From assembly GCA_050251815.1 (NCBI GenBank), contig JBFWMB010000005.1:17787-81786 (forward strand): DNA of 64,000 bases, written 5' to 3'. Below, piece after piece: positions 3,087 to 37,155 of the stretch (positions are counted from its first letter, which is position 1; the number at the start of each line of letters is the position of its first letter). Both the position numbers and the translations under genes were made by a program. This DNA is from Salinivirgaceae bacterium. Lineage in GTDB: Bacteria; Bacteroidota; Bacteroidia; Bacteroidales; SZUA-534. Under the pieces are notes generated by a model that was given only the letters and a program-made list of their open reading frames with translations, made no database searches and had not been told where the DNA came from.

Positions 3087-3108
3087 TAATTTTTAGAAAA
3101 CAAACACC

Positions 3109-3558
3109 ATGAGCAAAGAATTAAGCCATACCGACCAGCAGGGAAAAGCCAATATGGTAGATGTGGGACACAAGCCCCAACAAACCCGTACAGCAAAAGC
3201 ATCCGGGGTCATTCGCCTTCAGCCAAAAACTATTGAACTGATACGCGAAAACCAGCTAAAAAAGGGCGATGTACTTACCATAGCCGAAATTGCAGGCATA
3301 CAGGCCGGGAAGCGGACCTCGGAATTAATTCCCCTATGTCATCCGCTGCTGATAACTAAACTCGATGTTAAGGCTCAATTAACCGACACTGGTGTTCACT
3401 GCGAAAGTTTTGCCAAATGCATCGGGCAAACCGGTATTGAAATGGAAGCACTGACAGCAGTTAGCGTTGCGCTGCTAACCATTTACGACATGTGTAAAGC
3501 GGTGGATAAAGGAATGGTGATTGAAGCAGTTCATCTGGTTGAAAAAACCAAAAAATAG
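3109..3558 (+). CDS. moaC: Cyclic pyranopterin monophosphate synthase MoaC
   Basis: LSH...ANMVDV, KKGDVL, LIPLCH, TGIEMEALT and IYDMCKAVDK motifs. Confidence 0.96.
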   Translation: MSKELSHTDQQGKANMVDVGHKPQQTRTAKASGVIRLQPKTIELIRENQLKKGDVLTIAEIAGIQAGKRTSELIPLCHPLLITKLDVKAQLTDTGVHCESFAKCIGQTGIEMEALTAVSVALLTIYDMCKAVDKGMVIEAVHLVEKTKK

Positions 3559-3783
3559 GCTCACTGCTAATTCAGCATCCAGGAAAAAATAAAAGTAATT
3601 GTGCGTTCTTAAACGAGAAGTTGAATACAATAGTTTTCCCAATAAGTTGCAGTTGCAAAAAGGCTAACAGCATAACTATTAACTCCCTGACGCAGTTCAA
3701 TATTTCGTTTTTTTTGCGATGCAAAACACCAGGAAACCGGAAAATAATGAAAGTTAGATTTTAGCATACATGCATTATTTTAA

Positions 3784-3791
3784 TACATTTG
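3784..3791 (+). promoter_or_regulatory. Bacteroidota sigma-70 -7 element (TACATTTG)
   Basis: Matches TAnnTTTG, 20 nt before the ATG at 3812, which supports that start. Confidence 0.5.
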
Positions 3792-3811
3792 CTAAATTCA
3801 AGAAACAGACT

Positions 3812-6037
3812 ATGTCCACTTTAACAAACAACAAAAAATTTGGAACTGCACCGGTATTTTTTACCGCCATTTCAACCATATTAGGAGCTATCCTTTTTTT
3901 AAGATTTGGTTTTGCCGTAGGTACTCTGGGTTTTTGGGGCGTAATTTTAATTATCTTATTGGGCCATTTAGTTACCATTCCCACCGCCCTGGCCATTTCA
4001 GAATTAGCAACCAATAAGCGGGTTGAAGGAGGTGGCGAGTATTTTATTATTTCCCGTTCGTTTGGTTTAAATATTGGAGCGACTATTGGTATTGCATTGT
4101 TTCTTTCACAAGCTATCAGTGTAGCTTTTTATGTGATAGCATTTACGGAAGCCTTCGATTTTTTCTTTCAATTTATCGCCGAACGCTTTAATATGGAACT
4201 TCAAAGGCAATTCATCAGCATACCAGCTATGTTTGTTCTTGCTGTTTTAATTTTAAAAAAAGGAGCAAACATGGGTGTAAAGGCTCTTTATTTTGTGGTT
4301 GCCATATTAGGAATCTCATTGGTGCTATTTTTTTTAGGCGATACCCCTCACGCAAATATTTCAGGATTTAGTCTTGAAAATGCAGAATTACGAAATATGG
4401 ATCAGTTCTTTATAGTATTTGCCATTATTTTTCCTGCATTTACCGGAATGACAGCTGGTGTGGGTCTATCGGGCGATTTAAAAAAACCATCCAAATCAAT
4501 TCCAATAGGAACCACCGCGGCTACTTTTATAGGGATGATTCTTTACGTCTTTATTGTCTACAAATTAGCCCTTTCGGCCAACATCGACGATTTGACCAAC
4601 AATCAGTTAATTATGGCTCAAATTGCTATAGGCGGTGCATTTTTTATTCCCTTAGGACTGGCTGCTTCAACCATATCTTCAGCACTGGGCTCAATTATGG
4701 TTGCTCCGCGAACACTTCAAGCTCTGGCTTTAGACAATGCTTTTCCAATAAAAAAAATGAACCGCTGGTTGGCTAAAGAACGCACAAAAGACAATGAACC
4801 TTTTAATGCCTCACTAATCACCATTTTAATTGCTTTTGTATTTGTTGCCTTAGGTGATGTTAACTTTGTTGCCAGTATTATCTCAATGTTTTTTATGGTA
4901 ACTTATGGGTCGCTTTGCCTGATCAGTTTTTTAAATCATTTTGGCTCATCGCCTTCCTACCGTCCTTCGTTTAAATCAAAATGGTTCTTATCGCTTATTG
5001 GCTTTGTTGTTTCAGTTTGGGTCATGTTCAAAATCAACACCCCTTATGCGCTATTGGCTTTTACCTTAATGATATTATTGTATTTATACATTAAAAGCTA
5101 TCACAAAAACCGACGTGGCTTAGAAGGTATTTATGCCAATACCGTTTACCAGCTAAGCCGAAACCTCCATGTGTTTATACAAAAAAACAGGGATAAAGAT
5201 TCCTATAAAGAGTGGAGACCCAGTGCTATTTGTATCTCAAAAAGTTCCTTTGAACGCGAGAATGCATTTAAATTGCTGGATTGGATATCATACAAATTTG
5301 GTTTTGGAACCTACCTGCATCACATCAACGGTTATTACTCAAAAGCAACTCATTTACAGGCAGAAACGGAGCTTACCAAGCTAATAAATAAAGTGTTGCG
5401 CAAAGGCAGCCATTTATATGTCGACACAATTATTTCGCCGTCAAACACCTCGGCTATAGCACAAGCCATTCAGATACCGGGTATTTCGGGCATGGAAAAT
5501 AATCTGGTGATTTTTGAATTCGATAAAAACAGCCAGGAAAACCTTCATGAAATAATCGATAACATTTCGCTGGTTTCGGCCGGAAATTTTGATATCGGGG
5601 TATTAGCCAGCAGCCGCAAAGAAATAAACTACAAAAACGGCATCCACCTGTGGATTAGAACCATTGATACCGAAAATGCAAATTTACTTATATTGCTAAG
5701 CTTTGTTATTCTGGGTCATCCTGACTGGAGAAAAGCTGATATTAAAGTATTCAATTTAGTTAAAAAGCAGGAATTTGAAGAAGCAAAAAAACAAATGAAA
5801 AACCTGGTAGTAGAAGGTCGCCTGCCAATTACGGAAAAAAATATTGAAGTGCTGATTCAGGATGAAAGCATTTCATCAAAAACACTCATCAATGAGAAAT
5901 CCGAAAATGCCGGATTTACTATAATTGGATTCAGGCTGGAATCTCTTAAACACGAAAAAGAAAAAATATTTACCGGCTACCAAAATCTTGGAAATATACT
6001 TTTTGTACACTCTCATTTTCAAAAAACTATTGAATAG
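3812..6037 (+). CDS. Cation-chloride cotransporter (SLC12/CCC-like, APC superfamily)
   Basis: GGGEYFIISRSFG, FPAFTGMTAG..LSGDLKKPSKSIPIGT, PSYRPSF and WRP motifs, about 12 TM segments and a large cytoplasmic C-terminal domain. Confidence 0.85.
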   Translation: MSTLTNNKKFGTAPVFFTAISTILGAILFLRFGFAVGTLGFWGVILIILLGHLVTIPTALAISELATNKRVEGGGEYFIISRSFGLNIGATIGIALFLSQAISVAFYVIAFTEAFDFFFQFIAERFNMELQRQFISIPAMFVLAVLILKKGANMGVKALYFVVAILGISLVLFFLGDTPHANISGFSLENAELRNMDQFFIVFAIIFPAFTGMTAGVGLSGDLKKPSKSIPIGTTAATFIGMILYVFIVYKLALSANIDDLTNNQLIMAQIAIGGAFFIPLGLAASTISSALGSIMVAPRTLQALALDNAFPIKKMNRWLAKERTKDNEPFNASLITILIAFVFVALGDVNFVASIISMFFMVTYGSLCLISFLNHFGSSPSYRPSFKSKWFLSLIGFVVSVWVMFKINTPYALLAFTLMILLYLYIKSYHKNRRGLEGIYANTVYQLSRNLHVFIQKNRDKDSYKEWRPSAICISKSSFERENAFKLLDWISYKFGFGTYLHHINGYYSKATHLQAETELTKLINKVLRKGSHLYVDTIISPSNTSAIAQAIQIPGISGMENNLVIFEFDKNSQENLHEIIDNISLVSAGNFDIGVLASSRKEINYKNGIHLWIRTIDTENANLLILLSFVILGHPDWRKADIKVFNLVKKQEFEEAKKQMKNLVVEGRLPITEKNIEVLIQDESISSKTLINEKSENAGFTIIGFRLESLKHEKEKIFTGYQNLGNILFVHSHFQKTIE

Positions 6038-6100: not shown

Positions 6101-6475
6101 ATGTTACCTCTCATTCTCGACAAAACACAGGACACTCCCGGAGTAATACTCGATGCGGCACAAAAACATTTCTGGTTTACAGGAACTTCAATCCCTGAAA
6201 ACACCCATAAATTTTTTGAACCTGTTTTTGTCTGGATAGAAAACTATTTAAAAGAACCCAATCAGGAAACGATTGTAAACTTTAAGATGACTTACTTTAA
6301 TACCTCATCAACCAAATCGCTACTCGATTTGATGATACTTTTTAAGGAACTGGCTAAAAACGGAAAATCACTGATTATCAACTGGTATTTTCCCAACGAA
6401 GACGAGGATATGTACGAAGCCGGTCTGGGTTTTTCAAAAATGGTCCGTTTCCCGTTCAATTTTATCAATTATTAA
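6101..6475 (+). CDS. SiaC-family (DUF1987) regulatory phosphoprotein
   Basis: TP.V...G.SIPEN...FF.PV..WI, YFNTSS.K and WY....DEDM.E.G motifs. Confidence 0.85.
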   Translation: MLPLILDKTQDTPGVILDAAQKHFWFTGTSIPENTHKFFEPVFVWIENYLKEPNQETIVNFKMTYFNTSSTKSLLDLMILFKELAKNGKSLIINWYFPNEDEDMYEAGLGFSKMVRFPFNFINY

Positions 6476-23422: not shown

Positions 23423-25840
23423 TTAGTTTTTTAGGAACCTGTTTTTTAAAGCGGTAAATAGCGATTTGCTTTCCTCATCGTCGTCGTAATAACCAGAACC
23501 GTAGCCGTAGCCATAACCGTAACCATAGCCGTAACCGTAGCCATAACCGTAGCCATAGCCATATTTTTTCCCGTAATAGCCCGGTACTTTCACATCGTTT
23601 ATTAAAATGTTAAAATCGGGTATATTGGGTTTCTCGTTCAAATCGTTAATCAGGTCGAGTACATCTTTATGTGAATAGTTCTGGCGAATAACAAACACAT
23701 TGACGTCAGAAAACTGTGCAAACAATAAAGCATCAGATACCAAAGCAATGGGAGGTGTGTCGACTACAATAAAATCGAAATTTGCACGGGCGTAAGTAAC
23801 AAAATCAATCAGCGCCTGCGTTTCGAGCAAGCGGGCCGGATTTGGCGGAACCGGTCCTGAAACCACTACCGATAAACCTTCAACCGAAGTGGGCACAATG
23901 ATATCTTCAATTTTTTCTTTCCCGATTAAGTAAGAACTTAATCCAATGGTATTTTCAATATCGAAATGTCGGTGAATCCGCGGTTTACGTAAATCCATTC
24001 CCACCAGCAGGGTTTTCTTTCCGGTTAAGGCAATAATAGACGCCAGGTTTAGCGAGCAAAAAGTTTTGCCCTCACCACTAATGGTTGAGGTAACGGTAAT
24101 TACTTTTGCATCCTCTTTCAACAACAAATATTGCAGGTTTGTTTTTATGGTTCGGAACGATTCGGAAATGGCTGATTTCGGGTTATCGACCACCACCAGT
24201 TCTGTTTGCTTGCTGTTATGGCCCACTACTCCAAGAATAGGCGCTTTGGTTCGTTCTTCCACATCTTTTTTCGACAATATCTTATTGTTGAAATAATCGC
24301 GAAGAATGATAATGAGGAAAGGAACAAACAAACCAATAACCAATGAAATCATGTAGTTTAGCCGGCTTTTGGGAGCAATTAGTGCAGCCTGTTCAACCCT
24401 TGCTTTATCGAGCACTTTGGCACTGGGGATGTTTGAAGCCATGGTTATACCCGATTCTGCACGTTTTTCGAGCAGGTAGGTATAAATCTGATCGTTCAAA
24501 TCGAATCGGCGCTGAATATTAATTAAGCGTCGCTCGTTCAAAGGCAGTTTTGCAATCTCAACATTTAACACCTTAATTCGTTGCGCTAAATCGTCAATGG
24601 CAATCTGGTTGGTTTGAATCAGATTCTTTACATTTTCTTCAATCATCTTGCGGACTTCGGCTGTTTTGGAATTTAAAATATCCAGTTTGGGATTGCTTTT
24701 TACCGATTGCAGCTGCAAACCCACGCGCTCGGCATTCAGACTGTTTAACTGCATTATCAGATTCACCAGCAATTGGTCGCGCACCCCGACCGATGTGGGA
24801 ACAATTACATGTTCATCATCGCGTTTGCTGTTCAGGTAATCGAGTAGGTATTTGTAATATTTCGATTCAATCAAAAGCACGGCCTTGTCCGATTCCAGTC
24901 GTTCAAACTGGTCGTAGAGGGTTTTTCCCTCCTGCGACAAATCGATAATGCGGTTTTCAGTTCTAAACGCCTGCAGGTTTCCTTCGGCCACACTCAACGA
25001 ATCAACAACAGCACTAATTTGCTCATCGATAAAATGGATGGTATTCAGGGCTATCTGGTTTTTTTCTTCCAATTCGGAACGAATAAACACCTCGGCCAAT
25101 TTATTCAGGTAGCGGGCTTCCTTTTCGGCCACATAGCCGGTAGTTGAAAGCGTAAGTATGGTACCTTCCTCGTCGAACAAGCCAATGCCCAGTTTATTCC
25201 GGTATTGATTGGCCAGGTAATCGAGGTTATTTATGTAGAAATAATACTTGTCGGTGGTTGACTGATGAAAATTCTCCGGATTACGAATGGTGATATTAAA
25301 ACTGAACCAATCGTTTTCAAATTGCTCGCCAAAACTTAATTCTTTTCTGATGGGTTGCTCGGCCTCTATTTCTAAAAGGTATGTATCGGCAGAAAGAATG
25401 CTAACATAAATTGGAACCCCATATTGCTGATAATGATCCGGATTAAGGTTTACCTGGAGGCGATCGGGGCGGTACAATTCCGGATCGCGAATGCGACCGA
25501 TTCCATAGTAGGTTATCTCAAAATCGAGTTCATCGAGCACGGTACGGTTTAAATCGAAGGAACGAAGTATACCAAAATTATTTTTAAGGTTGGTTCCCTG
25601 TTTAAACAATTCGAGTCCTTGAATCATCTCGTCGCTGTAATACGAATTGGAACCCATTTCGCGAATAAGCAAGGTTGAACTCACCTGAAATACCCGGTCG
25701 CTATAGCGATTAATAAGATAAGCGGCCGAAACAGATACAAAAACAGCCAAGGCAAACCAATACCAATTGATTAGTATCTTAAAAATGTATTTTTTAATGT
25801 CGATGGTTTCCTCCTTGTAGATATCGTCGAACTCAGCCAT
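23423..25840 (-). CDS. wzc: Polysaccharide co-polymerase / tyrosine autokinase Wzc
   Basis: Two TM segments, coiled-coil periplasmic domain, ESFRTIKTNL, GEGKTF, DLRKP, DTPP and a C-terminal Tyr cluster. Confidence 0.93.
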   Translation of the reverse strand: MAEFDDIYKEETIDIKKYIFKILINWYWFALAVFVSVSAAYLINRYSDRVFQVSSTLLIREMGSNSYYSDEMIQGLELFKQGTNLKNNFGILRSFDLNRTVLDELDFEITYYGIGRIRDPELYRPDRLQVNLNPDHYQQYGVPIYVSILSADTYLLEIEAEQPIRKELSFGEQFENDWFSFNITIRNPENFHQSTTDKYYFYINNLDYLANQYRNKLGIGLFDEEGTILTLSTTGYVAEKEARYLNKLAEVFIRSELEEKNQIALNTIHFIDEQISAVVDSLSVAEGNLQAFRTENRIIDLSQEGKTLYDQFERLESDKAVLLIESKYYKYLLDYLNSKRDDEHVIVPTSVGVRDQLLVNLIMQLNSLNAERVGLQLQSVKSNPKLDILNSKTAEVRKMIEENVKNLIQTNQIAIDDLAQRIKVLNVEIAKLPLNERRLINIQRRFDLNDQIYTYLLEKRAESGITMASNIPSAKVLDKARVEQAALIAPKSRLNYMISLVIGLFVPFLIIILRDYFNNKILSKKDVEERTKAPILGVVGHNSKQTELVVVDNPKSAISESFRTIKTNLQYLLLKEDAKVITVTSTISGEGKTFCSLNLASIIALTGKKTLLVGMDLRKPRIHRHFDIENTIGLSSYLIGKEKIEDIIVPTSVEGLSVVVSGPVPPNPARLLETQALIDFVTYARANFDFIVVDTPPIALVSDALLFAQFSDVNVFVIRQNYSHKDVLDLINDLNEKPNIPDFNILINDVKVPGYYGKKYGYGYGYGYGYGYGYGYGYGYGSGYYDDDEESKSLFTALKNRFLKN
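23498..23563 (-). repeat. (Tyr-Gly)x11 coding repeat in the Wzc phospho-tyrosine tail
   Basis: Eleven hexamers RCCRTA on the plus strand with mixed synonymous codons. Confidence 0.9.
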
Positions 25841-25843
25841 AAT

Positions 25844-26626
25844 TTAGTACGATATATAAGTTAATAATAGCAATAGGGTAGTAAGTCCGCTAAGTACAAC
25901 ACTTACCGTAGGTGAATTGATGCTGACCATTTTGGCTCGCAAAGGTTTCACATAAATCACATCGCCGGGTTTCAACCAAAAATATTCGCTGGCCATAAAA
26001 TCGGTCGAGGTTAAATCGAGCAATGCGGTTTGCGAACCTGAGACTGTTTTGCGAATCACCAATACCTCTTTGGCGTTGCCGTAATTCGAAATATCGCCGG
26101 CTTTGGCCAGGGCTTCGAGTAAATGTACATCTTTCTTATAAAAAGCATAGGTCGACGGCCTTTGCACCTCACCCAAAACAGAAATCTCATAACTCAACAA
26201 TCGCACATCTACCACCGCACCAATCAGGTATTCGTCGATAATTTTTTGCAGGGTATTGCGGGCCTGTGTAAGCGACTGACCAACCAGATGCACTTTACCG
26301 ATTACCGGCAATTCAATATTTCCTTCATGATCAATCAGGTAACCCTGAATAAAAAGCGACAACTCGTTAAACGTTCCCGACGATGCCGCCGATGATTTTT
26401 TAAAAGATTCGGTCTGTCCCAGTTCCACACCAAAAATATTGATGTAAATATTATCGCCAATTTGCAAAATAATTTCTTCAGGAATAGTATGGTTTACCTG
26501 TAAACCAATAGAGTCATCGCGCTGAAAGGTTTCCTGAAAATAAAGGGTGGTTTTGTAACGGGCGCAGTTACTAAACAGCACACCAGTAAGCAAGAGTAAA
26601 AAGTATAAACGAAAATTCCGATTCAT
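25844..26626 (-). CDS. wza: Polysaccharide export outer-membrane lipoprotein Wza
   Basis: Lipobox FSNC, GNIELPVIG, VLGEV, EALAKAGD and LKPGDVIYV motifs. TATGTTTG -7 element at 26647-26654 (minus). Confidence 0.9.
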   Translation of the reverse strand: MNRNFRLYFLLLLTGVLFSNCARYKTTLYFQETFQRDDSIGLQVNHTIPEEIILQIGDNIYINIFGVELGQTESFKKSSAASSGTFNELSLFIQGYLIDHEGNIELPVIGKVHLVGQSLTQARNTLQKIIDEYLIGAVVDVRLLSYEISVLGEVQRPSTYAFYKKDVHLLEALAKAGDISNYGNAKEVLVIRKTVSGSQTALLDLTSTDFMASEYFWLKPGDVIYVKPLRAKMVSINSPTVSVVLSGLTTLLLLLTYISY

Positions 26627-26838
26627 GGATTTATATTTTCAAAGTACAAACATAAATAACAAATTGATGTAAGCCAATAAAAAAGCAACATAAACAATAA
26701 ATTGCAAGATAGCAGCATTTTTGGTCAATTCAGAACTTCACTTTATCAAAAAAGCAGGCTACACTATTAATATATGTAATATTTCAACTATTTTTGAACT
26801 CGCACGTATATAAGATTCGTAAATTAACTTATTTAGAT

Positions 26839-29800
26839 ATGAAGAGGTTTGGTTTTATTGTTTCCCTTCTAACAAGCATCCTATTTTCTGAAACCATGTA
26901 TGGTCAGGAACCAACAGTTCAGGTTTCTAATTTAGCTGTAACAAATGCTACCCCATCATCAATAACACTCTCCTGGACCAATGGCAATGGAGAAAACACT
27001 CTAATTTTATGCAAAGAAGTTGAATTAACCGTTTATGCAATTCCTGACACTTATAGTTTTTTAGCTGACGCAAATTATGGAGATGGAGATTATTTAACCG
27101 CTACTTCAGGCATGCCTCCAACTACTACTTATAATTATATAGTTTACAACGGCAATGGAAGCAGCATAACCGTGACTGGACTTATGGATGCCACTAAATA
27201 TATGTTTTATGCTGTAACCTATAATGGTAGTGGTGGAACTGAGGACTATTTAAATTCTTATGAAACAAACTACCTTTCTCATTTTTCCTCTCCATTTCAA
27301 GCCTCTGATATTACCTTTTCAAGCATTCAGGCAGATGCTATAACTGCATCCTACACATCTGGTAGCGGGGGCAATCGGATTGTATTGGTAAAAGCTGGTA
27401 GCCCTGTAGATGCTGACCCTGTAGATAATACGCAATACACTGCAAATACTGTTTTTGGTTCCGGACAACAACTGGGTACAGGTAATTACGTGGTGGCAAA
27501 GGGTGATAACAACAGTGTAACAGTAACTGGTTTAACAGCCGGAATTACCTACCATTTTAAAGTTTATGAATATATCTCGGACGGAACCAATCGCGATTAC
27601 CGCACCGATGGTTTCGATGAAGTAACTGATAATCCCAACTCACAGATAACCCTTAAGCCAGAACCCACCACCCAGGCTTCTGATATAAGCTTTACCAGTA
27701 CAGGTTCAAGCGAAGTAAGTTTAACTTGGACTGCCGGAAACGGCGATGGCAGCATGGTAGTTGTACGTGCAGAAGGAACTACCGAGGTTGATCCTGTGGA
27801 CTTTAATGATTATACAGCAAATACCGCTATTGGTAGTGCCGGCACCACCGGGGCTGGTAATTTTGTGGTATTTAAAGGTCTCGGCACCAGCGTAACAGTA
27901 ACCGGTCTTACTCCCGAAACCACCTACCACTTCAAAGTTTACGAATTCAATAACGAAGGTGCACTCTCTAACTATAAAATTGACGGCTATCCTTCCGGTA
28001 CAAATCCAAATTCTACAACTACCCTTAAAGGCCAACCAGCCCAGGCTTCTGAACTGGTTTTTACCAACATTACAGAAAACTCCATGACGGTGAGTTGGAC
28101 CACTGGTGGTGGGGATGGTGCCGTTCTAATTGCACGCGAGGCCAGTGCAATAGCTGATTTCCCCATTGACGGAACACCTTATTCCGGAGATTTGGCATTT
28201 GGTTCCGGAGCCAATCTGGGCAACAACACCTTTGTACTATACAATGGTATAGCCGAAACAGCTGACATTACCGGACTTAGCCTGGGTACCACGTATCACT
28301 TTATGGTATGTGAATATAATAATTCTGGAACTGAAACGGATTACAACACCAACCCGGGAACCAATAATCCCGGCAGTCAGTCCACGCTTAAAACCTTTCC
28401 AACCACTCAGGCAACAGCTATTACAATTACCGACATTCAGGCCAATCAGTTTACGCTAACCTGGACTAACGGCGATGGCGACAATCGGGTGGTTCTAATG
28501 AAGCAGGGTGCTGCAGTAAATGCTATTCCTGCTGATGGGACTAATTATACCGCCAACACGGTTTTTGGTGCCGGAAACCAACTTGGTACAGGTAATTATG
28601 TGGTTTTTAATGGTTCCACCAACAGTGTTACCGTTACCGGACTCGATGCCAACACCAACTATTACGCTAAAGTATTTGAATACAATAATACCGGGACTGA
28701 TATACTTTTTAAAACCGATGATTTTTCAGATTTCAATCCGGCCAGTGCAAAAACACTACCTACGCTTCAAGCTAGCGAACTGGTATTTAGCAATGTGCAA
28801 AACAACTCCATCGATTTAAGCTGGACCCGGGGCAATGGGGATAGTGTATTGGTAGTAGCCAAAGCAGGAACCACCCTGACCGAAACACCCACCGAAGGCA
28901 CAATTTATACTGCCAACGGCACCTTTGAGAGCGGTGAAACAATTGCTCCCGGCGTGTATGTAGTTTATTCGGGAACAGGAACTTCCGTATCCGTAGATGG
29001 TTTAGCAGCCAGCACCGATTACGTTTTTAAAGCCTTTGAATTCAACAATAGTGAACCCTATACTTCCTATTTAAACACCGATGGCAGTAGCAACAATCCG
29101 GCCACACAATCAACCACAGGAGATGAACCTACAACACAAGCCAGCGCTGTTTCATTTGCAAATACAAGCTCGACCCAAACCGACGTGAGCTGGACAGCAG
29201 GAAATGGTGACGGACGCATTGTGCTGGCTTATGAGGGAGATACCCTTTCAGCCCTTCCGGTTGACGGAACTACTTATACCGCCAATGCGATATTTGGAAG
29301 CGGTTCCGAAATAGGAACCGGTAACTTTGTAGTTGCTTTGGGTGATGTTATCTCAGAAACAGTTACCGGACTTACTCCGGAATCAGAATATCAATTCAGG
29401 GTTTTTGAGTATTCAGGTAGTGGTAGTTCTATTAATTACCTTACTTCTGCTGGAAGCGATAACCCAGATAGTGTAACCACACTGGTAGGAAAACCTATTA
29501 TTCAAGCCAGTAATGTTACATATGACCAATTGGATACTGAAAGCTACCGGGTAAATTGGACTCACGGCAGTGGAGACAGTCTTTTGGTTGTTGCCGTTGC
29601 AGGTACGTTTACCACAAGCGAAAATCCGGTGGACGAAACCGATTATGTAGCTGATGCAGCCTTTGGAAGCGGTACACTCATTGGCAGTGGACGTGTTGTT
29701 TACAAAGGAATCTCTGCTGATGGTTCTGTAATTGTTACCAATTTAACAGCGGCCACCAATTATTCTTTTAAGGTATTTGAATACAACTCAATCGGGGGAA

Positions 29801-32800
29801 TTCCTTATTACCAAACTGCTGATGGAACCGACAATCCCACGTCGCGCTCTACCTTAGAAACTGAACCTACTACTCAGGCAGGAACAATAAATTTTTCAAG
29901 TGTGGGTGCCACTCAGCTTACGTTGGACTGGTCACCAAGGGGAAATGGTACCAATGTAATTGTTATTGCCCGTGAATCCGCAGATATATTGACCCATCCC
30001 GTTGATGGAACAAGTTATAGTGGCAATAACGATTTTACCTTAGCTGAAGTCTATGCTACCGATCATCGCGTGGTTTTCAACGGTTCTGGAACCGGAGCCA
30101 CCATCACCAATCTGAATCCAAACGCTACCTATTATTTCAGAGCTTATGAATACAATGGCTCAGCATCTACCTGTAATTATCTAACTTCCTCAGGAGGTTC
30201 AAGCAATACTACCACCATAAAAGCTGAACCAACCTTACAAGCCGGTAATTTTTCATTTTCAGTTATTAATACAACTTCATTCACGGTAAATTGGAACCGT
30301 GGTAATGGCGACAATGTCTTTATTGTTGCCAGCACTACTCCTATCAATCAGGTACCGGCTGATGGAATTGATACCTGTACGGTAAGTTCCGTTTTTGGTC
30401 AAGGGTCTGAAATAGCGCTGGAATCAGGAATTTTTGCTGTTTATAAAGGAACAGCTTCCGCCGTTGATATTAGTGGTTTAACCAGCGCTACGCAATACTA
30501 TTTCAGGGCTTTTGAATACAACAATACAGGTACTGACATTGATTATTTAACAACACCTGATAATTCAGCCTCACAATTTACCTTGTCAACTGAACCTACC
30601 GTGCAGGTTAGTGCTTTTGGCAATACGGTTTATAATGACACCATTTCGCTAGACTGGATAAACGGAAACGGAACCGGACGAATTATTCTGGCAAAACATG
30701 GCAATGCGGTAGATGCAAGCCCCACAGATGGAGTTGAATACACAGCCAGTGCCATCTTTGGTTCAGGAACTGAATTAGGTACCGGCAATTATGTAGTATA
30801 TGCTGGAAACCTACCTGATACGGTTCGCATTACCGGACTCCTGGCTTCAGAAACTTATTATTTTCAGGCTTTTGAATACGATAATACCGGAGCACTTAAC
30901 TATTTATTAACCGATGCTCCCACAACATCGGCTACCACCGGAACCAAAGGTGTTCCATCGGTTCAGGCATCTGAAATAAACTTTACCAATCTGGCTTCCG
31001 ATAACTTTACCATTAACTGGATCAATGGAAATGGAGAGAACCGCCTGGTAGTTATGCGCGAAGGCGAACAGGGAACTATTAGTACTCCTGTTGATAATAC
31101 CAATTATGTGGCTAGCAATGATTGGACCACAAAAGGAACCGAGTTGGAATCATCAGGTTACTATACCGTTTACAATGGTTCAGGGAGTTCAGTTTCCGTA
31201 AGCAATTTAACACCAAACACTACCTACTGGGTTTATGTGTTTGAATACAACAACCCAGCTGGTTTTGAAAGCTATAATACAAACACCGAAACCAATAATC
31301 CTGCGAATGGAACAACCCTTAAAACGATTCCAACTGGACAGTCCTGGGGAATAAGCAGTGGAACCATTACCTCAAATTCCATTAACATTTCCTGGACTCG
31401 TGGTAACGGAGATAACTGCATTGCGGTAATAAATACGTCCAATAGCTTTTCAGCCTACGATGGTTTCGATCCCCTTGCCAATGCCAATTACATCGGCAGT
31501 GGCGAGCAAGTGATTTACAATGGCACCGGAAGTTCCGTTACCGTAAGCGGTTTAGATGGCTCAAGCACCTATTGGTTTAAAGTGATGGAATACAACAATT
31601 CAGAAACTTACACCCTGTATCATTCGGCTGATACTACTGACAACCCAATTAGCTTTGCAACACTTGGTACAGCAACCTGGGTTGGAACCACCACCGATTG
31701 GACAACTAACACCAACTGGTCTCCGACAGCTGTTCCAACTTCACTGCAAAGCGTAATCATTTCATCAGGACAAAGTGCTTATCCGGAACTAAGTTCATCG
31801 CATAGTGTTGACAATATGGTAATTGAAGCCGGTGCAACTATTACCATTGCCGATGGTGGCCACTTAAACATTACCCGCGATTTATTGCTCGAAAGCCCAA
31901 CGAGCAGCGGTTCAAGTGGTGCTTTGGTTATTCCGGGTTCAGGAACTATTTCTGTAGGAGGAACCTCAACCATGGAACGCTACAACCCGAACCCATTAAG
32001 CAGGCGTTTTCTTTCATTTCCTACCCCACCCAGCATCAGCACCTTTAATAATTATTATGTATTTGGCTGGGAGGAACCCAATATAAATTGGATCGACATG
32101 AACGGAGGCCCTTCAATTGCTACAATGCAAGGTTTGCTGGTCTGGGACGGTCCGCAAATGATAACTTTCACAGGTGCTTTTAATAATGGCAACCAAAGCA
32201 TTAATGTAACCAACAGCTCACCGGGCGATGGAAGCTACGGCTGGAACCTGGTAGGAAATCCTTACCCCAGCACCATTGATTGGGATGCGGCATCGGGATG
32301 GACATTAAACAATGTAGATGCTACCGCTTATTATTATAATGGTTCAACCTATGACACCTGGAACTCAGGTTCACATTCCGGAACCGGAGGTGGAACCCAA
32401 TACATTGCGGCCGGACAGGGATTTTTTGTACATGCTTCGGCCAATGGCTCATTGGGAATGACCAATGAGGTTCGGGTAACCAATACACAAAATCTGCTAA
32501 AAACAGCCGAAACCGAGAAGCAATTGATACGCATCGAAACAGCAAATAACAATCTTACCAGCGATGCCTTATTGCTATTTTATTCCGATGCTACCGATGA
32601 TTTTGATGCACAGTATGATGCCTACAAATTAACGGGCGATTTGCCTGAACTTGCAGAAGTTTACTTTATCAACAAAACAGATCAGCTGGCCATCAACACT
32701 TTTGCTGCCAATAAACTGGCTGAACTAAACGAAACCCCTCAACTAGTATTTCCATTGGGACTATTAAACCAGACTTCGGGAATTGTTAACTTCCGTATTT

Positions 32801-33213
32801 CCGAAAAACGGAATATACCATCAGACATAAATATTTATGTATATGATGCACTTACCAATGGATACACCAACCTGAATGAAGTGGATTACGAATTATTTAT
32901 TGCCGGAGAAACCAATTACATCGAAGATCGTTTTGAACTTGTATTGTCGAAGAATGCACTTTCAATTAACAACGAAAATTTAGACGTAAAAATATGGTCG
33001 TTTGCCAGTGAAAAAACTATTTTCATAAAAAGCAGTCAGGCAATTGAAACAAGTTCAAGGGTTTATCTGTATGATCTTACAGGCCGTTTATTAAACACCA
33101 ACACGTGGAATGGCTTAGGTTTACAGGAGTTTAAAGTAGAAGCTGCAGGCACCTATATAATTAAAATTCAAGTTGAAAAAAATATAATAACGCAAAAAGT
33201 AGTTGTTCAATAA
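26839..33213 (+). CDS. Large T9SS type-A cargo surface protein with 13 tandem FN3-like repeats
   Basis: Signal peptide from MKRFG. Thirteen ~120-125-aa repeats (P..QAS...W..GNGD...P.DG..Y.A...FG.G...VVY.G...V.GL...Y.F..FEYN), a GWNLVGNPYPSTIDW block, FD..YDAYK and a C-terminal GTYIIKI...TQKVVVQ T9SS CTD. Confidence 0.9.
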   Translation: MKRFGFIVSLLTSILFSETMYGQEPTVQVSNLAVTNATPSSITLSWTNGNGENTLILCKEVELTVYAIPDTYSFLADANYGDGDYLTATSGMPPTTTYNYIVYNGNGSSITVTGLMDATKYMFYAVTYNGSGGTEDYLNSYETNYLSHFSSPFQASDITFSSIQADAITASYTSGSGGNRIVLVKAGSPVDADPVDNTQYTANTVFGSGQQLGTGNYVVAKGDNNSVTVTGLTAGITYHFKVYEYISDGTNRDYRTDGFDEVTDNPNSQITLKPEPTTQASDISFTSTGSSEVSLTWTAGNGDGSMVVVRAEGTTEVDPVDFNDYTANTAIGSAGTTGAGNFVVFKGLGTSVTVTGLTPETTYHFKVYEFNNEGALSNYKIDGYPSGTNPNSTTTLKGQPAQASELVFTNITENSMTVSWTTGGGDGAVLIAREASAIADFPIDGTPYSGDLAFGSGANLGNNTFVLYNGIAETADITGLSLGTTYHFMVCEYNNSGTETDYNTNPGTNNPGSQSTLKTFPTTQATAITITDIQANQFTLTWTNGDGDNRVVLMKQGAAVNAIPADGTNYTANTVFGAGNQLGTGNYVVFNGSTNSVTVTGLDANTNYYAKVFEYNNTGTDILFKTDDFSDFNPASAKTLPTLQASELVFSNVQNNSIDLSWTRGNGDSVLVVAKAGTTLTETPTEGTIYTANGTFESGETIAPGVYVVYSGTGTSVSVDGLAASTDYVFKAFEFNNSEPYTSYLNTDGSSNNPATQSTTGDEPTTQASAVSFANTSSTQTDVSWTAGNGDGRIVLAYEGDTLSALPVDGTTYTANAIFGSGSEIGTGNFVVALGDVISETVTGLTPESEYQFRVFEYSGSGSSINYLTSAGSDNPDSVTTLVGKPIIQASNVTYDQLDTESYRVNWTHGSGDSLLVVAVAGTFTTSENPVDETDYVADAAFGSGTLIGSGRVVYKGISADGSVIVTNLTAATNYSFKVFEYNSIGGIPYYQTADGTDNPTSRSTLETEPTTQAGTINFSSVGATQLTLDWSPRGNGTNVIVIARESADILTHPVDGTSYSGNNDFTLAEVYATDHRVVFNGSGTGATITNLNPNATYYFRAYEYNGSASTCNYLTSSGGSSNTTTIKAEPTLQAGNFSFSVINTTSFTVNWNRGNGDNVFIVASTTPINQVPADGIDTCTVSSVFGQGSEIALESGIFAVYKGTASAVDISGLTSATQYYFRAFEYNNTGTDIDYLTTPDNSASQFTLSTEPTVQVSAFGNTVYNDTISLDWINGNGTGRIILAKHGNAVDASPTDGVEYTASAIFGSGTELGTGNYVVYAGNLPDTVRITGLLASETYYFQAFEYDNTGALNYLLTDAPTTSATTGTKGVPSVQASEINFTNLASDNFTINWINGNGENRLVVMREGEQGTISTPVDNTNYVASNDWTTKGTELESSGYYTVYNGSGSSVSVSNLTPNTTYWVYVFEYNNPAGFESYNTNTETNNPANGTTLKTIPTGQSWGISSGTITSNSINISWTRGNGDNCIAVINTSNSFSAYDGFDPLANANYIGSGEQVIYNGTGSSVTVSGLDGSSTYWFKVMEYNNSETYTLYHSADTTDNPISFATLGTATWVGTTTDWTTNTNWSPTAVPTSLQSVIISSGQSAYPELSSSHSVDNMVIEAGATITIADGGHLNITRDLLLESPTSSGSSGALVIPGSGTISVGGTSTMERYNPNPLSRRFLSFPTPPSISTFNNYYVFGWEEPNINWIDMNGGPSIATMQGLLVWDGPQMITFTGAFNNGNQSINVTNSSPGDGSYGWNLVGNPYPSTIDWDAASGWTLNNVDATAYYYNGSTYDTWNSGSHSGTGGGTQYIAAGQGFFVHASANGSLGMTNEVRVTNTQNLLKTAETEKQLIRIETANNNLTSDALLLFYSDATDDFDAQYDAYKLTGDLPELAEVYFINKTDQLAINTFAANKLAELNETPQLVFPLGLLNQTSGIVNFRISEKRNIPSDINIYVYDALTNGYTNLNEVDYELFIAGETNYIEDRFELVLSKNALSINNENLDVKIWSFASEKTIFIKSSQAIETSSRVYLYDLTGRLLNTNTWNGLGLQEFKVEAAGTYIIKIQVEKNIITQKVVVQ

Positions 33214-33257
33214 AATAATTTTTATCACTTTTGCAGATTGAGCAGAATAATTAGCCA

Positions 33258-33548
33258 ATGATAGTTAAAGTAACAAAATATATTACTGCTTTACTTTTTT
33301 TACTATTTTTTCCAAGTTTATTGTTTGCCGATGGCACCAAGCCTTCGTCGACCAGTAAAAGCGGGAATTTTAAAAAAAGTAGTTTCTCAAAGCAGAATAG
33401 CTGGAGCTCAGGCGGGAAGGCCCTTACTCCTCCCAATCCGGATGACGCAACGGGAGGAACCAAAGTGCCAATTTCCGGGGGGCTTACTTTCCTACTCATT
33501 GGCAGTACCTTATATTTGGTTAAGCGAGTGAAGGATGAAAACAAATAA
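33258..33548 (+). CDS. Small secreted protein with a PID-CTERM-like sorting signal
   Basis: Signal peptide ending LLFA, a ~45-aa S/K/P-rich linker, then VPISGG + hydrophobic helix LTFLLIGSTLYLV + basic KRVK. This is the tripartite exosortase-type signal. Confidence 0.8.
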   Translation: MIVKVTKYITALLFLLFFPSLLFADGTKPSSTSKSGNFKKSSFSKQNSWSSGGKALTPPNPDDATGGTKVPISGGLTFLLIGSTLYLVKRVKDENK

Positions 33549-33557
33549 TCCTTTTTC

Positions 33558-34175
33558 ATGCCTTTATTCAAATCAATCAATCAACTAAAGATTTCTGATT
33601 CACTGATAAAAGAAATTCTGCAGTACCTTTTTTCATTTACTATTGCCTGGGTAATTGCCAGTTTAATTTCTGACTTTCCGTTTTTTGCCGAACCCATCGA
33701 AAAATCAGGTTTTACTGAATACTACCGTGATTTTTTAATGGGCTTAACCAATCAACAACTGCACGGGTTGGGACATCAAACCTTTTGGTACAACAACACA
33801 CTGGGAATTGAAGGAACCGCCGGATTAATATTTGCCTACGGATGCCTGGGTTACCGAATTCTGGCGTTTTTTATCGTATTTATCATCCTTCAGTTCGGAC
33901 GATTTTTTCATAAAATCTGGTATTTGCTATTGGGAATTTTCCTGATTACCTGGATAAATTCTCTTAGGGTAGTAATAATTGCTTTGGGCCAATTACACAA
34001 TCCCGAATACACTGTTTTGTTGCACGATACGATATCGCCCGTTTTAATGTATCCTCTATTACTGGCCCTTTGGATAATCTGGCTAAAAACCTTTGGAAAA
34101 GCACCTACAACAGATACCCTGTTGTATAAAATGGTAAAATTTATAGCCAATGCGCCCTTGTTTAATTCAAAATAA
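33558..34175 (+). CDS. Exosortase/archaeosortase-family transpeptidase
   Basis: Multi-TM protein with Cys (YGCLG), Arg (INSLRV) and His (LLHD) in the exosortase triad order; next to the sorting-signal gene. Confidence 0.85.
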   Translation: MPLFKSINQLKISDSLIKEILQYLFSFTIAWVIASLISDFPFFAEPIEKSGFTEYYRDFLMGLTNQQLHGLGHQTFWYNNTLGIEGTAGLIFAYGCLGYRILAFFIVFIILQFGRFFHKIWYLLLGIFLITWINSLRVVIIALGQLHNPEYTVLLHDTISPVLMYPLLLALWIIWLKTFGKAPTTDTLLYKMVKFIANAPLFNSK

Positions 34176-34223
34176 TTTTAAATTTACTTTGGGATTAAGA
34201 TTGGTAACAAAAAAAACCAAAGT

Positions 34224-34814
34224 ATGGGAATCGAGATTAATTTATTTAACATTAACCACTACCTGGCCAAAATTGGAAAAGGTAAATGCCTCATCTCGGA
34301 ACCTTTTTCACCCGATTCTTATTTTGGACGTTCGGTGGTTTTAATTACCGAACATAGTGAAAATGAAGGTACATTGGGTTATATTCTAAACAAACCCATC
34401 GATGTTCCCATCCACGAATTATTTCCCGATTTTCCAACCTTTAATGCTCCCTGTTTTGTGGGCGGACCGGTAAACCCTGAGACCATTCATTATTTGCATA
34501 CCCGTATCGATTTATTGCCCGAGAGCACTCCGGTAACCAATGGAATTTATTGGGGAGGCGATTTTGATTTACTTAAAGAACACATTCAAAATGGGATGAT
34601 AAGGCCCAGTGAGATACGTTTTTACCTTGGTTATAGCGGTTGGGCACCCCAGCAATTACAGCAGGAAATTGATGATAAGTTTTGGATTGTCAGTCCGATT
34701 TCTTCAACAAAAATTATGCATGCCAATCAAAATACCTGGAAAGAATTGCTGAATGAGATGGGCGATTCTTATTCCATTTGGGCCAATGCCCCAACCAATC
34801 CGGGTATGAATTAA
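34224..34814 (+). CDS. YqgE/AlgH (DUF179) family protein
   Basis: FGRSVVLI.EH, GYILNKP, GGPV, GYSGW..QL..E and P..N motifs. Confidence 0.92.
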   Translation: MGIEINLFNINHYLAKIGKGKCLISEPFSPDSYFGRSVVLITEHSENEGTLGYILNKPIDVPIHELFPDFPTFNAPCFVGGPVNPETIHYLHTRIDLLPESTPVTNGIYWGGDFDLLKEHIQNGMIRPSEIRFYLGYSGWAPQQLQQEIDDKFWIVSPISSTKIMHANQNTWKELLNEMGDSYSIWANAPTNPGMN

Positions 34815-35668
34815 GAAAAAGCCTGGTTATTAAGCCTTTCGAGCAACATTTGACTTTTCTTTTTAAAATACCTACGATTTTGAAAGCCAATTACACTGCG
34901 GATTCCACTTACAGCATTTGTTAAAAATATTTCGTCCATTTGGTGCAGATCCTCAGCCATTAGTAACGCATCATCGTTTACCAGAAACCCCAATCCAGAA
35001 GCAATTTTTAGAATCTGTTTACGCATGACTCCCTCCACAGGTCCCAACTTTAACGAAGGAGTAAACAATTCATTCCCCCGGATGGCAAACATATTGGACG
35101 AAGTGGCTTCAATCAAAAAATTGTCGGCTGAAACAAGTAAAACATCATCAAACGAATGACGCTGCGCATATAATGAAGCTAAAATATAAAATTGCGCGTT
35201 CAACGATTTTATTTGCAAATAGGGCACATTAGGTTTGGAAAACGTATTGTAAACCCCCAAAACCAAACCCTGATGGAGCATTTCATAGGGCCCTTTGCCC
35301 AGGTATTTTGCTTCAATAAAAATATCTGTTGCATTCTTATCGGGTAGATACAAACCGGCTCCTCCTCTTACAAAGACAGCTTTAACGCGAGCAGCCTGAA
35401 ATAATTTATTACGCGAAAGCAAACCTGAGATTTGTTTGTCAAAAAAATCGAGTGAGAAATAATCGGGTAAATGCATTTCGAGGGTAGCTGCCGCTTTCAC
35501 TATTCGCTGATAATGATCGGCTATAAATTGGGTTTTTAGGCCGTTGGCATGCATGGTTTCAAAAAAACCATCGCCATAGCGAAAAGCACGGTTCTGCAAA
35601 CCAATGGGCAATTCCGATTCGGCCAGGTAATGTTTATTAAATGCACATATCTTGTATTCATTGGCCAT
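34811..35668 (-). CDS. Aminotransferase class IV (4-amino-4-deoxychorismate lyase-like)
   Basis: NRAFRYGDGFFET, KS.N, EATSSN.F, G.MR and EIFLTNA motifs. Confidence 0.88.
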   Translation of the reverse strand: MANEYKICAFNKHYLAESELPIGLQNRAFRYGDGFFETMHANGLKTQFIADHYQRIVKAAATLEMHLPDYFSLDFFDKQISGLLSRNKLFQAARVKAVFVRGGAGLYLPDKNATDIFIEAKYLGKGPYEMLHQGLVLGVYNTFSKPNVPYLQIKSLNAQFYILASLYAQRHSFDDVLLVSADNFLIEATSSNMFAIRGNELFTPSLKLGPVEGVMRKQILKIASGLGFLVNDDALLMAEDLHQMDEIFLTNAVSGIRSVIGFQNRRYFKKKSQMLLERLNNQAFS

Positions 35669-36168: not shown

Positions 36169-36774
36169 CTACGGGAGAAGCTGATTAATAAAATGTGTAA
36201 ATAACCCCGGTTTTATCAAAATTGGAAAAACAAAACCAAAAACGGCGCCCCAAAAATGGGCATCGTGACCAATATTATCGATATTCTTTTTACCCATGTA
36301 ATACGAATACCCCAAATATAGCAAACCAAACATAATGCCCGGAATGGGCACAATAGCCATAAAATATATTTTGCTTAAGGGAGCAAAAAAGATGCTGGCA
36401 AAAGTTACAGCCGACACAGCACCCGAAGCGCCAACGGCATTGTAATGGGGATTGTCTTTTTCTTTAAACAGGGTAAAAACCGAAGACACCACAATGGCTC
36501 CGAAATACAAAACTAAAAACAATAAAGTGCTACTAGCACCTATAAAGTGGTGAAAATAGTATTCCAGTGCCTGCCCAAAGGAATAAAACACCAACATGTT
36601 AATTATTAAATGCTCCCAGTTGGCGTGCAAAAAAGCATGGGTAAAAAGCCGGTACCATTGCCTGCGATGCACAATCTGATAGGGATTCAGGTTGTATCGG
36701 TACATTAACTCAGGCCGGCTAAAGGCTGCAATAGAAAATATTGCAGTAACTACAATGATTAGAATACTTATCAT
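36169..36774 (-). CDS. Rhomboid intramembrane serine protease
   Basis: WYR, HAFLHA..HL..NM, GASG and AHFWGA motifs. Confidence 0.92.
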   Translation of the reverse strand: MISILIIVVTAIFSIAAFSRPELMYRYNLNPYQIVHRRQWYRLFTHAFLHANWEHLIINMLVFYSFGQALEYYFHHFIGASSTLLFLVLYFGAIVVSSVFTLFKEKDNPHYNAVGASGAVSAVTFASIFFAPLSKIYFMAIVPIPGIMFGLLYLGYSYYMGKKNIDNIGHDAHFWGAVFGFVFPILIKPGLFTHFINQLLP

Positions 36775-36780
36775 AAACAA

Positions 36781-37155
36781 TTAATTTCGGGGGCTAAATT
36801 CAAAAGGAATTTCAAGAATTGAAGCAAAATCGAGACCCAGGCGCAACATATCTTCATCGATATTTTCGTAGGCCCATTCAACCGAAATGTGACGTCCCCG
36901 GTTGTACATGTCGTTTAGCTTGCGCAATACATTAAAAACCATGTGATGCGAAGAAGTACTCAGGTATCTGAAAAATAATTTGCATTGGCAATTATCTAAA
37001 TGACTGCCTTCGTTATCGAGCCATTCAATAATCGGCTTATACACCCTGTTCACATCTTCAGGTGTTGAATTTCCGGCAATTTGAAAGATTGCCAAATCCG
37101 CATCCATCAGTACATCCGGACAATCTTCGGTAGCTTCAATTTTTAAATAACCCAA
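36781..37155 (-). CDS. SiaC-family (DUF1987) protein, second copy
   Basis: P.V...I.G.S.PED...YKPII.W, YLSTSS and W.Y...DEDM..G.DF motifs. TTG start. Confidence 0.8.
   Translation of the reverse strand: MGYLKIEATEDCPDVLMDADLAIFQIAGNSTPEDVNRVYKPIIEWLDNEGSHLDNCQCKLFFRYLSTSSHHMVFNVLRKLNDMYNRGRHISVEWAYENIDEDMLRLGLDFASILEIPFEFSPRN

Follow-up and report, generated by a model that had tools for sequence, protein, structure and literature searches.

A divergent PID-CTERM/XrtX-type exosortase locus in a Salinivirgaceae bacterium and its pairing with a RemA-like adhesin of the type IX secretion system

Background

In the PEP-CTERM/XrtA (EpsH) and rhombosortase/GlyGly-CTERM systems, an inner-membrane enzyme cuts off a C-terminal helix and hands the protein on to an acceptor; PEP-CTERM is in addition linked to exopolysaccharide (EPS), and rhombosortase processing precedes secretion by the type II secretion system (T2SS) and retention on the surface (PMC7468200, in part). 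Among the exosortases of Bacteroidota, XrtF (Fjoh_1448/1449) has mutants that, together with type IX secretion system (T9SS) mutants, are impaired in surface colonisation and biofilm (PMC10936215, in part), and the database models PID-CTERM (NF046080) and XrtX (NF046081) describe very small substrates with a tripartite sorting signal (a proline motif with GG, a helix and a basic tail) and an enzyme of about 170-205 aa with Cys, Arg and His. For T9SS cargo of type B in Flavobacterium johnsoniae, an adhesin gene is followed by a one-to-one dedicated partner gene encoding a PorP/SprF shuttle, which is an outer-membrane beta-barrel, and the auxiliary gliding adhesin RemA of the same species is anchored on the surface, mobile and partly released (PMC12618676, in part) and is reported to bind galactose-containing EPS (PMC8481357, in part). 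Here we compare these systems with a three-gene locus in a stretch of 64,000 nucleotides (hereafter the window) from a Salinivirgaceae bacterium (contig JBFWMB010000005.1, positions 17,787 to 81,786), which encodes a giant T9SS cargo, a 96-aa micro-protein and an exosortase.

The source genome is 99% complete in 176 contigs, and the closest named relatives of the window are Salinivirgaceae metagenome-assembled genomes. An earlier note on this DNA had proposed that the three genes couple two sorting pathways in one surface system. Our analysis shows that the locus is a divergent, single-substrate version of the Bacteroidota PID-CTERM/XrtX-type exosortase system, that this system is genetically wired to one T9SS cargo (a RemA-like adhesin with FN3 repeats) and to a Wzc-Wza pair, and that the substrate gene is tied more tightly to the RemA-like adhesin gene than to the enzyme gene.

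Results and discussion

An exosortase with a single recognisable substrate

The three genes are co-oriented, with intergenic gaps of 44 nt and 9 nt (coordinates in Table 1). This arrangement, the assignment of the first gene to type-A T9SS cargo of about 2,124 aa and that of the third to the Cys/Arg/His exosortases had all been read from the sequence in the earlier note, and they are confirmed here by the coordinates of the open reading frames (ORFs) and by the scores of TIGR04183 (Table 1) and of the exosortase signature TIGR04178 (40.7 bits against a cut-off of 23). The exosortase is polytopic, and its Cys96, Arg137 and His156, the catalytic residues of the superfamily, do not vary among 19 aligned members of the clade. 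A scan of positions 26500-35000 for promoters and terminators, by a method that leaves Bacteroidota promoters uncovered, found no excess of sites over shuffled sequences and no + strand terminator within the trio. The 44-nt gap upstream of the micro-gene (33214-33257) contains CACTTTTG, which is close in sequence to the Bacteroidota -7 promoter motif, TAnnTTTG, and the micro-gene and exosortase might therefore have a promoter of their own.

Scores against curated models place the exosortase in an unnamed subfamily, under the cut-off of every named NCBIfam model. The nearest named subfamily is XrtX (66.8 bits against a cut-off of 170), followed by XrtF, of similar size (TIGR04128, 49.5 against 90), and XrtY (NF046083, 46.2 against 160); a profile of the exosortase found no match among the sequences of the PDB. 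Relatives among 1.84 billion representative sequences number 346 at E<=1e-3 and 28 at E<=1e-10. The 19 closest scanned (P0005, P0012-P0029) are unnamed, with XrtX as their best model at 60-100 bits, whereas canonical XrtX proteins score 192-201 and first appear in the list at E~1e-10. In a quick maximum-likelihood tree of 65 exosortases (midpoint root, supports from the Shimodaira-Hasegawa-like approximate likelihood ratio test only), the enzyme of the window falls in a clade of 28 rows (support 92; hereafter the home clade) that comprises families f1, f162, f165 and f193 and one f153 genome. This clade lies beside a Bacteroidales group whose exosortases adjoin PID-type micro-genes, and both are separated from canonical XrtX, which comes from another class of the phylum (99), and from a group of low scorers (98); most low-scoring exosortases have no adjacent micro-gene.

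Two further observations concern the wider exosortase family. In a subgroup with support 98 (loci L043, L044, L047, L048 and L049; families f107, f124 and f130) there is no micro-gene in front of the exosortase, and a lipoprotein-like gene of about 275 aa ends 0-252 bp upstream of it; its product may represent another sort of partner or substrate. In three loci (L178 in G573, L185 in G462, L191 in G700) the exosortase domain is part of a longer ORF (361-373 aa), which may be a fusion.

The exosortase is the sole exosortase or archaeosortase in its genome (six-frame search, 44 bits). Hidden Markov models (HMMs) of the micro-protein and of its tail matched only the micro-gene among 43,653 six-frame ORFs on the 176 contigs, and when regular expressions were used to look for other substrates in the genome, they picked up only the micro-gene and two implausible matches. 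The idea of a dedicated exosortase is thus borne out, with the micro-protein as its sole recognisable substrate in the genome. Here the window differs from canonical PID-CTERM/XrtX genomes, in which 1-12 substrates are scattered away from XrtX, while its own single substrate adjoins the enzyme.

The micro-protein and its sorting signal

The micro-protein had been described as a signal peptide followed by VPISGG, a transmembrane segment and a basic tail, and its sequence agrees with this description. The predicted signal peptide (residues 1-24) ends in LLFA; the mature part (residues 25 to about 72, some 48 aa) is conserved and rich in Ser, Lys and Pro; and the sorting signal consists of V70-P-I-S-G-G75, a 13-residue hydrophobic stretch and KRVKDENK, the cleavage sites having been placed by eye rather than computed. 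The protein has no Pfam or NCBIfam match. The micro-gene is a real coding sequence under purifying selection: in comparisons among three close relatives, the mature part shows 9-11 codons with synonymous against 2-4 with non-synonymous changes and the tail 6-7 against 0-1, and the protein is 92% identical between relatives whose exosortases share 82-88%.

Homologues at home-clade loci are 90-110 aa long and conserved over several families. Common to them are a signal peptide, a basic region that holds a conserved motif resembling G-N-F-x-K-x-x-F-S-K, the string P-P-D-P together with a run of glycines, and a sorting signal of the form P-[IV]-P-[IV]-[SGAD]-[GN]-G with helix and basic tail. All named sources among the 18 database relatives of this family give "hypothetical protein"; one relative comes from the cultured species Salinivirga cyanobacteriivorans.

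The relation to PID-CTERM is close in architecture and weaker in score. The micro-protein has the full arrangement of that class (signal peptide, proline motif with GG, helix and C-terminal basic tail, in a genome with an exosortase), it aligns with PID-type micro-proteins, which an HMM of its own tail scores at 18-30 bits, and one home-clade member carries PIPIDGG. In the sister clades, a protein of 64-94 aa is encoded next to the exosortase; it has a signal, AQPPPPP..., PIDGG, a helix and KKL, and the two tested (L059 and L040) pass NF046080 at 47-51 bits against a cut-off of 26. The same model gave no match to the micro-protein of the window at E<=1, its best six-frame match in the genome being 11.3 bits at a place away from the micro-gene, and it also missed four other home-clade micro-proteins and that of L054. 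The suggestion of a PID-CTERM-like signal therefore stands for the architecture and for the kinship with sister clades, but not for the curated model itself. The main differences from PID-CTERM lie in the motif P-I-S-G-G and in the longer mature part (about 48 aa) with its conserved G-N-F-x-K..F-S-K.

The small size of the substrate, also pointed out before, is confirmed but is not special to this locus. In five canonical XrtX genomes, all 29 PID-CTERM matches lie in open frames of 57-183 aa, and those listed for Bacteroidales (150 listed of 196) lie in frames of 33-144 aa.

The giant cargo and its RemA-like domain

The cargo has a signal peptide, 10-11 repeats of the FN3 type (10 stretches with PF00041 at 151.6 bits and 11 with PF16656 at 155.1 bits), a pre-CTD domain and a C-terminal domain (CTD). 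The TIGR04183 score places it among type-A T9SS cargo, while the Pfam CTD model PF18962 stays under threshold (13.6 against 27); the genome holds 60 type-A CTDs over the TIGR04183 cut-off, that of the cargo included, and T9SS use was judged from these. At the corresponding place in other genomes stand orthologues 730-2,426 aa long.

The pre-CTD domain carries the motifs GWNLVGNPYPSxIDW and GGxxYIAAxQGFFV, is 29-37% identical between the cargo genes of five loci (alignments A3/A4) and is covered by no Pfam or NCBIfam model. Its profile matched three entries among the sequences of the PDB: RemZ (residues 672-1009 of 1114, E 1.7e-20), RemA (residues 1006-1330 of 1436, E 4.5e-19) and Mfa5 (residues 783-931 of 1027, E 6.1e-10). 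With RemA and RemZ, the match extends over about 300 positions and includes LLGNPYPSAI and YIAAGQGFFV. On this profile evidence the domain is homologous to the corresponding region of RemA, RemZ and Mfa5, a relationship newly recognised here. In the solved RemZ entry the CTD alone is well resolved (PMC10994853, in part), and in that of Mfa5 about residues 99-664 (PMC7835359, in part); the homologous region is resolved in neither. RemA and RemZ of F. johnsoniae, Mfa5 of Porphyromonas gingivalis and the cargo are alike as T9SS-secreted surface adhesins with a homologous region of about 300 aa before a type-A CTD. They differ in the N-terminal part, which consists of FN3 repeats in the cargo, a lectin domain in RemA (PMC12618676) and a vWA domain in Mfa5 (PMC7835359). 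A tblastn search of the genome with the C-terminus of the cargo found no paralogue, and the pre-CTD domain is present there in a single copy; across Bacteroidales the domain is widespread, 224 of the 401 genomes sampled having it and its matches numbering at least 718.

Micro-genes lie behind RemA-like cargo genes across the phylum

Micro-genes were sought by our own ORF calls and regular expressions. Among 17 high-scoring exosortase loci of the home clade, 15 have a micro-gene at -43 to +52 bp, with cargo of the A3 type just before it; one (G802) has cargo, micro-gene, an inserted gene and the exosortase; and the remaining locus lies at a contig start. The micro-gene thus directly follows the cargo gene in 16 of the 17. 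L064 and L107 lack the synteny further downstream (AlgH and so on) but still hold the trio. The insert in G802 (L112, 12809-14251) encodes a 480-aa protein whose tail presumably resembles the Fibrobacter "major paralogous domain".

Other families show the same order of cargo, micro-gene and exosortase (L119, L120, L156, L178 and L226), with peptides of 61 aa in G679, 55 aa in G548 (one gene inserted), 67 aa in G451 and 73 aa in G573; in G279 the peptide has 72 aa and the exosortase is 3 kb off. In L178 (G573), it is one of the long-ORF exosortases that is preceded by cargo and the 73-aa micro-gene. In L119 (G679, 3162-5372) the cargo seems split into a 673-aa ORF with the RemA-like domain and a 62-aa ORF with a CTD-like end, which may reflect a frameshift or assembly error.

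The pairing extends to genomes in which the enzyme lies elsewhere. In the five canonical XrtX genomes, where XrtX is not adjacent to PID-CTERM genes, 25 of 29 PID-CTERM genes directly follow a same-strand ORF that ends in a T9SS CTD. Most of these ORFs have A3/A4 matches, and all 10 cargo tails tested pass TIGR04183; of the other four PID-CTERM genes, two are directly followed by an A4-like gene, a third stands apart from such genes and the fourth is at a contig start. The chance expectation is about 2% of genes (325 CTD matches in about 17 Mb of these five genomes). A Bacteroidales sample was drawn by taking every fifth eligible PID-CTERM match, one per genome, from the 150 listed of 196. Of its 20 matches in 20 genomes, 18 could be evaluated: in 13 cases a full-length A3-type cargo (164-243 bits) precedes the match by 14-149 bp, while two matches lie beside an exosortase and three beside neither.

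Family f193 is instructive in that its exosortases nest in the home clade and have no micro-gene next to them. In four of five f193 genomes a micro-gene is found 6-33 bp behind A3-type cargo with no exosortase in the locus, the fifth match being at a contig start, and in G654 this site is 367 kb from the exosortase. A trio that is split therefore leaves the micro-gene with the adhesin gene and not with the exosortase. The gene before the exosortase in G654 (L066, 13423-14169) encodes a 248-aa secreted protein with a long Ser/Lys/Arg-rich C-terminus and with neither helix nor sorting motif.

Enzyme and substrate were also compared more broadly. An exosortase match at E<=1e-20 is present in 67 of the 87 PID-positive genomes among the 401, a count in which kin are not independent and the other 20 may have weaker matches. 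Of the 114 exosortase places in the order sample, 111 were examined (G467, G568 and G714 being left out); 22 have an adjacent micro-gene, and the PID model showed at least four more. In the family of the source genome, the exosortase and the full-length cargo domain occur in the identical 14 of 33 genomes, a coincidence that we do not weigh heavily, since a single deletion can remove neighbouring genes together and the genomes are related. In L068 (G495, 2087-4357), a 108-aa micro-gene and an exosortase are followed by three small lipoprotein-like genes (182, 255 and 223 aa), and T9SS cargo is not nearby.

The Wzc-Wza pair is divergent from the trio and is kept in all 10 home-clade loci with enough flank, its Wzc-like orthologues sharing 53-73% identity. 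The scores stay under the curated equivalog cut-offs for Wzc and for the export proteins of the XrtA system, and the assignment is therefore to the general families only (Table 1). No Wza or Wzc was seen near the cargo/micro-gene pairs of other clades in the loci read. In two genomes of the same family as the source genome a second, distant Wza/Wzc pair, 31-32% identical to that of the window, lies a few kb from the conserved pair (L063, 3712-6808; L109, 1003-4130).

Taken against the earlier note, the HMM searches recovered the exosortase signature TIGR04178 and left both the PID-CTERM and the XrtX models unmatched at their cut-offs. The note had named an absence of cross-genome linkage as fatal to its idea and had proposed counting micro-genes behind cargo with the GWNLVGNPYPS domain; linkage is found far above chance and specifically with such cargo (16/17, 25/29 and 13/18, against about 2%). 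As the pairing recurs across the phylum, the genetic part of the proposed coupling between cargo, peptide and exosortase is real and general.

A proposed tether or adaptor for the adhesin

We consider it very probable that cargo, micro-protein and exosortase form one functional module. In the explanation that we favour, the 96-aa protein would be exported by Sec and lose its signal peptide, would be held in the inner membrane by its C-terminal helix, and would be cut by the exosortase cysteine at or near P-I-S-G-G, the new C-terminus being passed to a lipid head-group or an amino-sugar as acceptor. These steps are patterned on exosortase, archaeosortase and rhombosortase biology (in part from section 20 of PMC7468200). 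The product would be an anchor-bearing, proline/glycine-rich peptide of about 48 aa (elsewhere only about 10-30 aa), and the gene pairing suggests that it is the dedicated partner of the adhesin encoded upstream. Most likely it would be a tether or adaptor that engages the RemA-like pre-CTD domain, probably through the conserved aromatic motifs of that domain, and holds or positions the adhesin on the surface; in the home clade, polysaccharide exported by Wza/Wzc may take part.

It counts in favour of this explanation that the cargo domain is that of RemA, a surface-anchored and mobile adhesin. A peptide as partner is also plausible because there are two precedents, type-B cargo with its PorP/SprF gene and rhombosortase processing before T2SS secretion. 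The likeness to the first lies in the one-to-one order of adhesin gene and partner gene; the cargo of the window has a type-A CTD, however, and its partner is not a beta-barrel but a peptide (55-110 aa in systems of this type) that is putatively processed by an inner-membrane exosortase. In PEP-CTERM and GlyGly-CTERM systems the sorting signal is on the secreted protein, whereas here it is on a separate micro-protein and the adhesin carries a T9SS CTD. Taken as a whole, the account of an exosortase-processed peptide as the adhesin's dedicated tether or adaptor seems to us evenly poised between right and wrong, and for the role of the peptide as anchor or adaptor taken by itself we would go up to that level or slightly below it.

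Several points weigh against this account. The RemA-like domain is found without a micro-gene behind it in all seven top-scoring Bacteroidales loci and in 13 of 14 domain loci of five Flavobacteriia-like genomes, and the canonical genomes hold 49 domain matches against 29 micro-genes, so that roughly half are unpaired; the domain therefore does not need the peptide. Conversely, a PID micro-gene adjoins the exosortase, away from any such cargo, in at least 11 genomes of Bacteroidales. Within one genome, many of the pairs are recent paralogues with near-identical tails, and the counts thus overstate the number of independent events. The ORF and regular-expression search missed at least four exosortase-adjacent micro-genes that the PID model found later (G421, G609, G482 and G562), and the micro-protein and exosortase of the window both fail their curated models (NF046080 and NF046081). 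Cleavage, acceptor and binding are inferred, and a peptide that is processed at the inner membrane would have no evident route to the surface.

The peptide could instead be a periplasmic escort, in which case the uncleaved micro-protein in the inner membrane would bind the newly exported adhesin through its RemA-like domain or CTD and hand it over to the T9SS, and the exosortase cut would merely release or recycle it; the micro-protein would then be a chaperone or targeting factor and not a surface anchor. The single micro-gene directly downstream of each cargo gene, like the cognate shuttle genes of type-B cargo (PMC12618676), fits this well, as do peptides too short for a fold of their own. 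Yet the same domain occurs in many cargo proteins whose genes have no micro-gene, and a transpeptidase-type enzyme with conserved Cys, Arg and His exceeds the apparent needs of a release step, and we regard an escort as unlikely. We give a somewhat smaller chance again to the peptide being a component of the matrix. By this account, as proposed for PEP-CTERM and EPS, the exosortase would link a basic peptide to the Wza/Wzc polymer or let the peptide bind it, and the adhesin would be a co-regulated matrix partner without contact to the peptide. The constancy of the Wzc-Wza pair beside the trio in 10 of 10 home-clade loci, the Lys-rich peptide of that clade and the classical tie of exosortases to EPS loci (PMC7468200, PMC10936215) speak for it. 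Outside the home clade, however, the pairs stand without Wza/Wzc in the loci read, the canonical mature peptides are Pro/Gly-rich with few or no basic residues, and a split trio leaves the micro-gene with the cargo.

A covalent bond between peptide and adhesin would be a further way to join them: the exosortase might transfer the peptide onto the adhesin, or PorU might join the adhesin C-terminus to an amine of the anchored peptide, which would then replace the amino-acid-bearing linking sugar of anionic lipopolysaccharide (A-LPS). PorU-type attachment uses a seryl or glycyl amine on the linking sugar (PMC7468200). The home-clade peptide, Lys-rich and with an N-terminus other than Gln, would suit the amine-acceptor form, whereas canonical peptides have Gln as their first residue once the predicted signal is removed, and most of them have no Lys. 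In Bacteroidota such N-termini are probably cyclised, which would leave canonical peptides no amine. We judge such coupling improbable. Least of all do we expect that there is no functional coupling, with adjacency being inherited synteny or cassette duplication and the micro-protein having an unrelated role in signalling or a membrane function. Housekeeping neighbours (AlgH, class-IV aminotransferase, HAD phosphatase and rhomboid) are indeed syntenic over the same distances, and paralogous expansion inflates the counts; but the pairing spans two classes of the phylum as well as many families, about 2% being expected by chance, and it outlasts both the loss of flanking synteny (L064, L107) and separation from the exosortase, which makes this reading highly improbable.

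Neighbouring genes

The AlgH/YqgE-family gene follows the exosortase in most home-clade loci, though not in L064 or L107, and is found in an unrelated context in G515; it is probably outside the system. The genes further downstream, for a class-IV aminotransferase-fold protein, a GmhB-like phosphatase and a rhomboid protease, are syntenic in many relatives but not in all. For the rhomboid, rhombosortase was the best model and was rejected (38.9 against a cut-off of 84). The window also contains two 124-aa paralogues of the SiaC family (biofilm regulation phosphoprotein), one of them four genes from the exosortase, which score 85.4 and 65.8 bits against an equivalog cut-off of 150.

Table 1. 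Features of the locus and its surroundings, in positions of the window
Feature	Position	Strand	Details
Cargo ORF	26794..33213	+	opens at TTG 26794, upstream of ATG 26839
T9SS cargo gene	26839..33213	+	2,124 aa from ATG at 26839 (MKRFGF...)
RemA/RemZ-like pre-CTD domain	31981..32910	+	about 305 profile positions; alignments A3/A4
T9SS type-A CTD of cargo	33028..33210	+	TIGR04183 31.4 bits, cut-off 23; residues 2079-2139 of P0001
Micro-protein gene	33258..33548	+	96 aa
Predicted signal peptide of micro-protein	33258-33329		residues 1-24
Sorting signal of micro-protein	33465-33545		from V70
Exosortase gene	33558..34175	+	205 aa
Exosortase Cys96	33843-33845
Exosortase Arg137	33966-33968
Exosortase His156	34023-34025
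Wzc-like polysaccharide co-polymerase/tyrosine autokinase	23423..25840	-	805 aa; GNVR 38.7>27.7, AAA_31 39.1>27, TIGR01007 152.9>108
Wza-like outer-membrane polysaccharide export protein	25844..26626	-	260 aa; Poly_export 53.2>28, SLBB_2 42.6>27
AlgH/YqgE-family gene	34224..34814	+	PF02622 143 bits
Rhomboid-family protease	36169-36780	-	syntenic in L063, L066 and L067 at 54-64% identity
SiaC-family paralogue	6101-6475	+	124 aa
SiaC-family paralogue	36781-37155	-	124 aa

Implications

For PID-CTERM/XrtX, a literature search found no paper, the mentions of XrtX being judged unrelated by title and NCBIfam comments and supplements lying outside the search; in the literature searched, these families are found as database models only, and no substrate or function is known for the exosortases of Bacteroidota. 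The pairing of micro-genes with RemA-like cargo is likewise not described in those parts of the literature on exosortases and type IX secretion that were covered by the search, and the phylum-wide pairing with RemA-like T9SS cargo thus appears undescribed there. The features new to the system of the window are the unnamed exosortase subfamily, the diverged motif, the long and conserved mature peptide, the single substrate and the link to Wza/Wzc.

A generalisation of the favoured explanation, in which PID-CTERM-type micro-proteins at large are exosortase-made anchors or adaptors for RemA-like T9SS adhesins, is offered tentatively, as we think it rather more likely to fail than to hold. If true, it would add a third way of fixing T9SS cargo to the surface, besides PorU/A-LPS and PorP/SprF, and would give a first function to the XrtX-type exosortases of Bacteroidota. 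It would also explain the surface retention of type-A adhesins of the RemA kind, and perhaps their movement. Such a phylum-wide rule merges the question of exosortase function with that of adhesin retention into one testable hypothesis with a short gene list. The window presents the system in its most compact form, a single enzyme with a single peptide and a single adhesin, accompanied by a Wza/Wzc pair, and, with a relative in the cultured Salinivirga cyanobacteriivorans, this makes it a good starting place for bench work.

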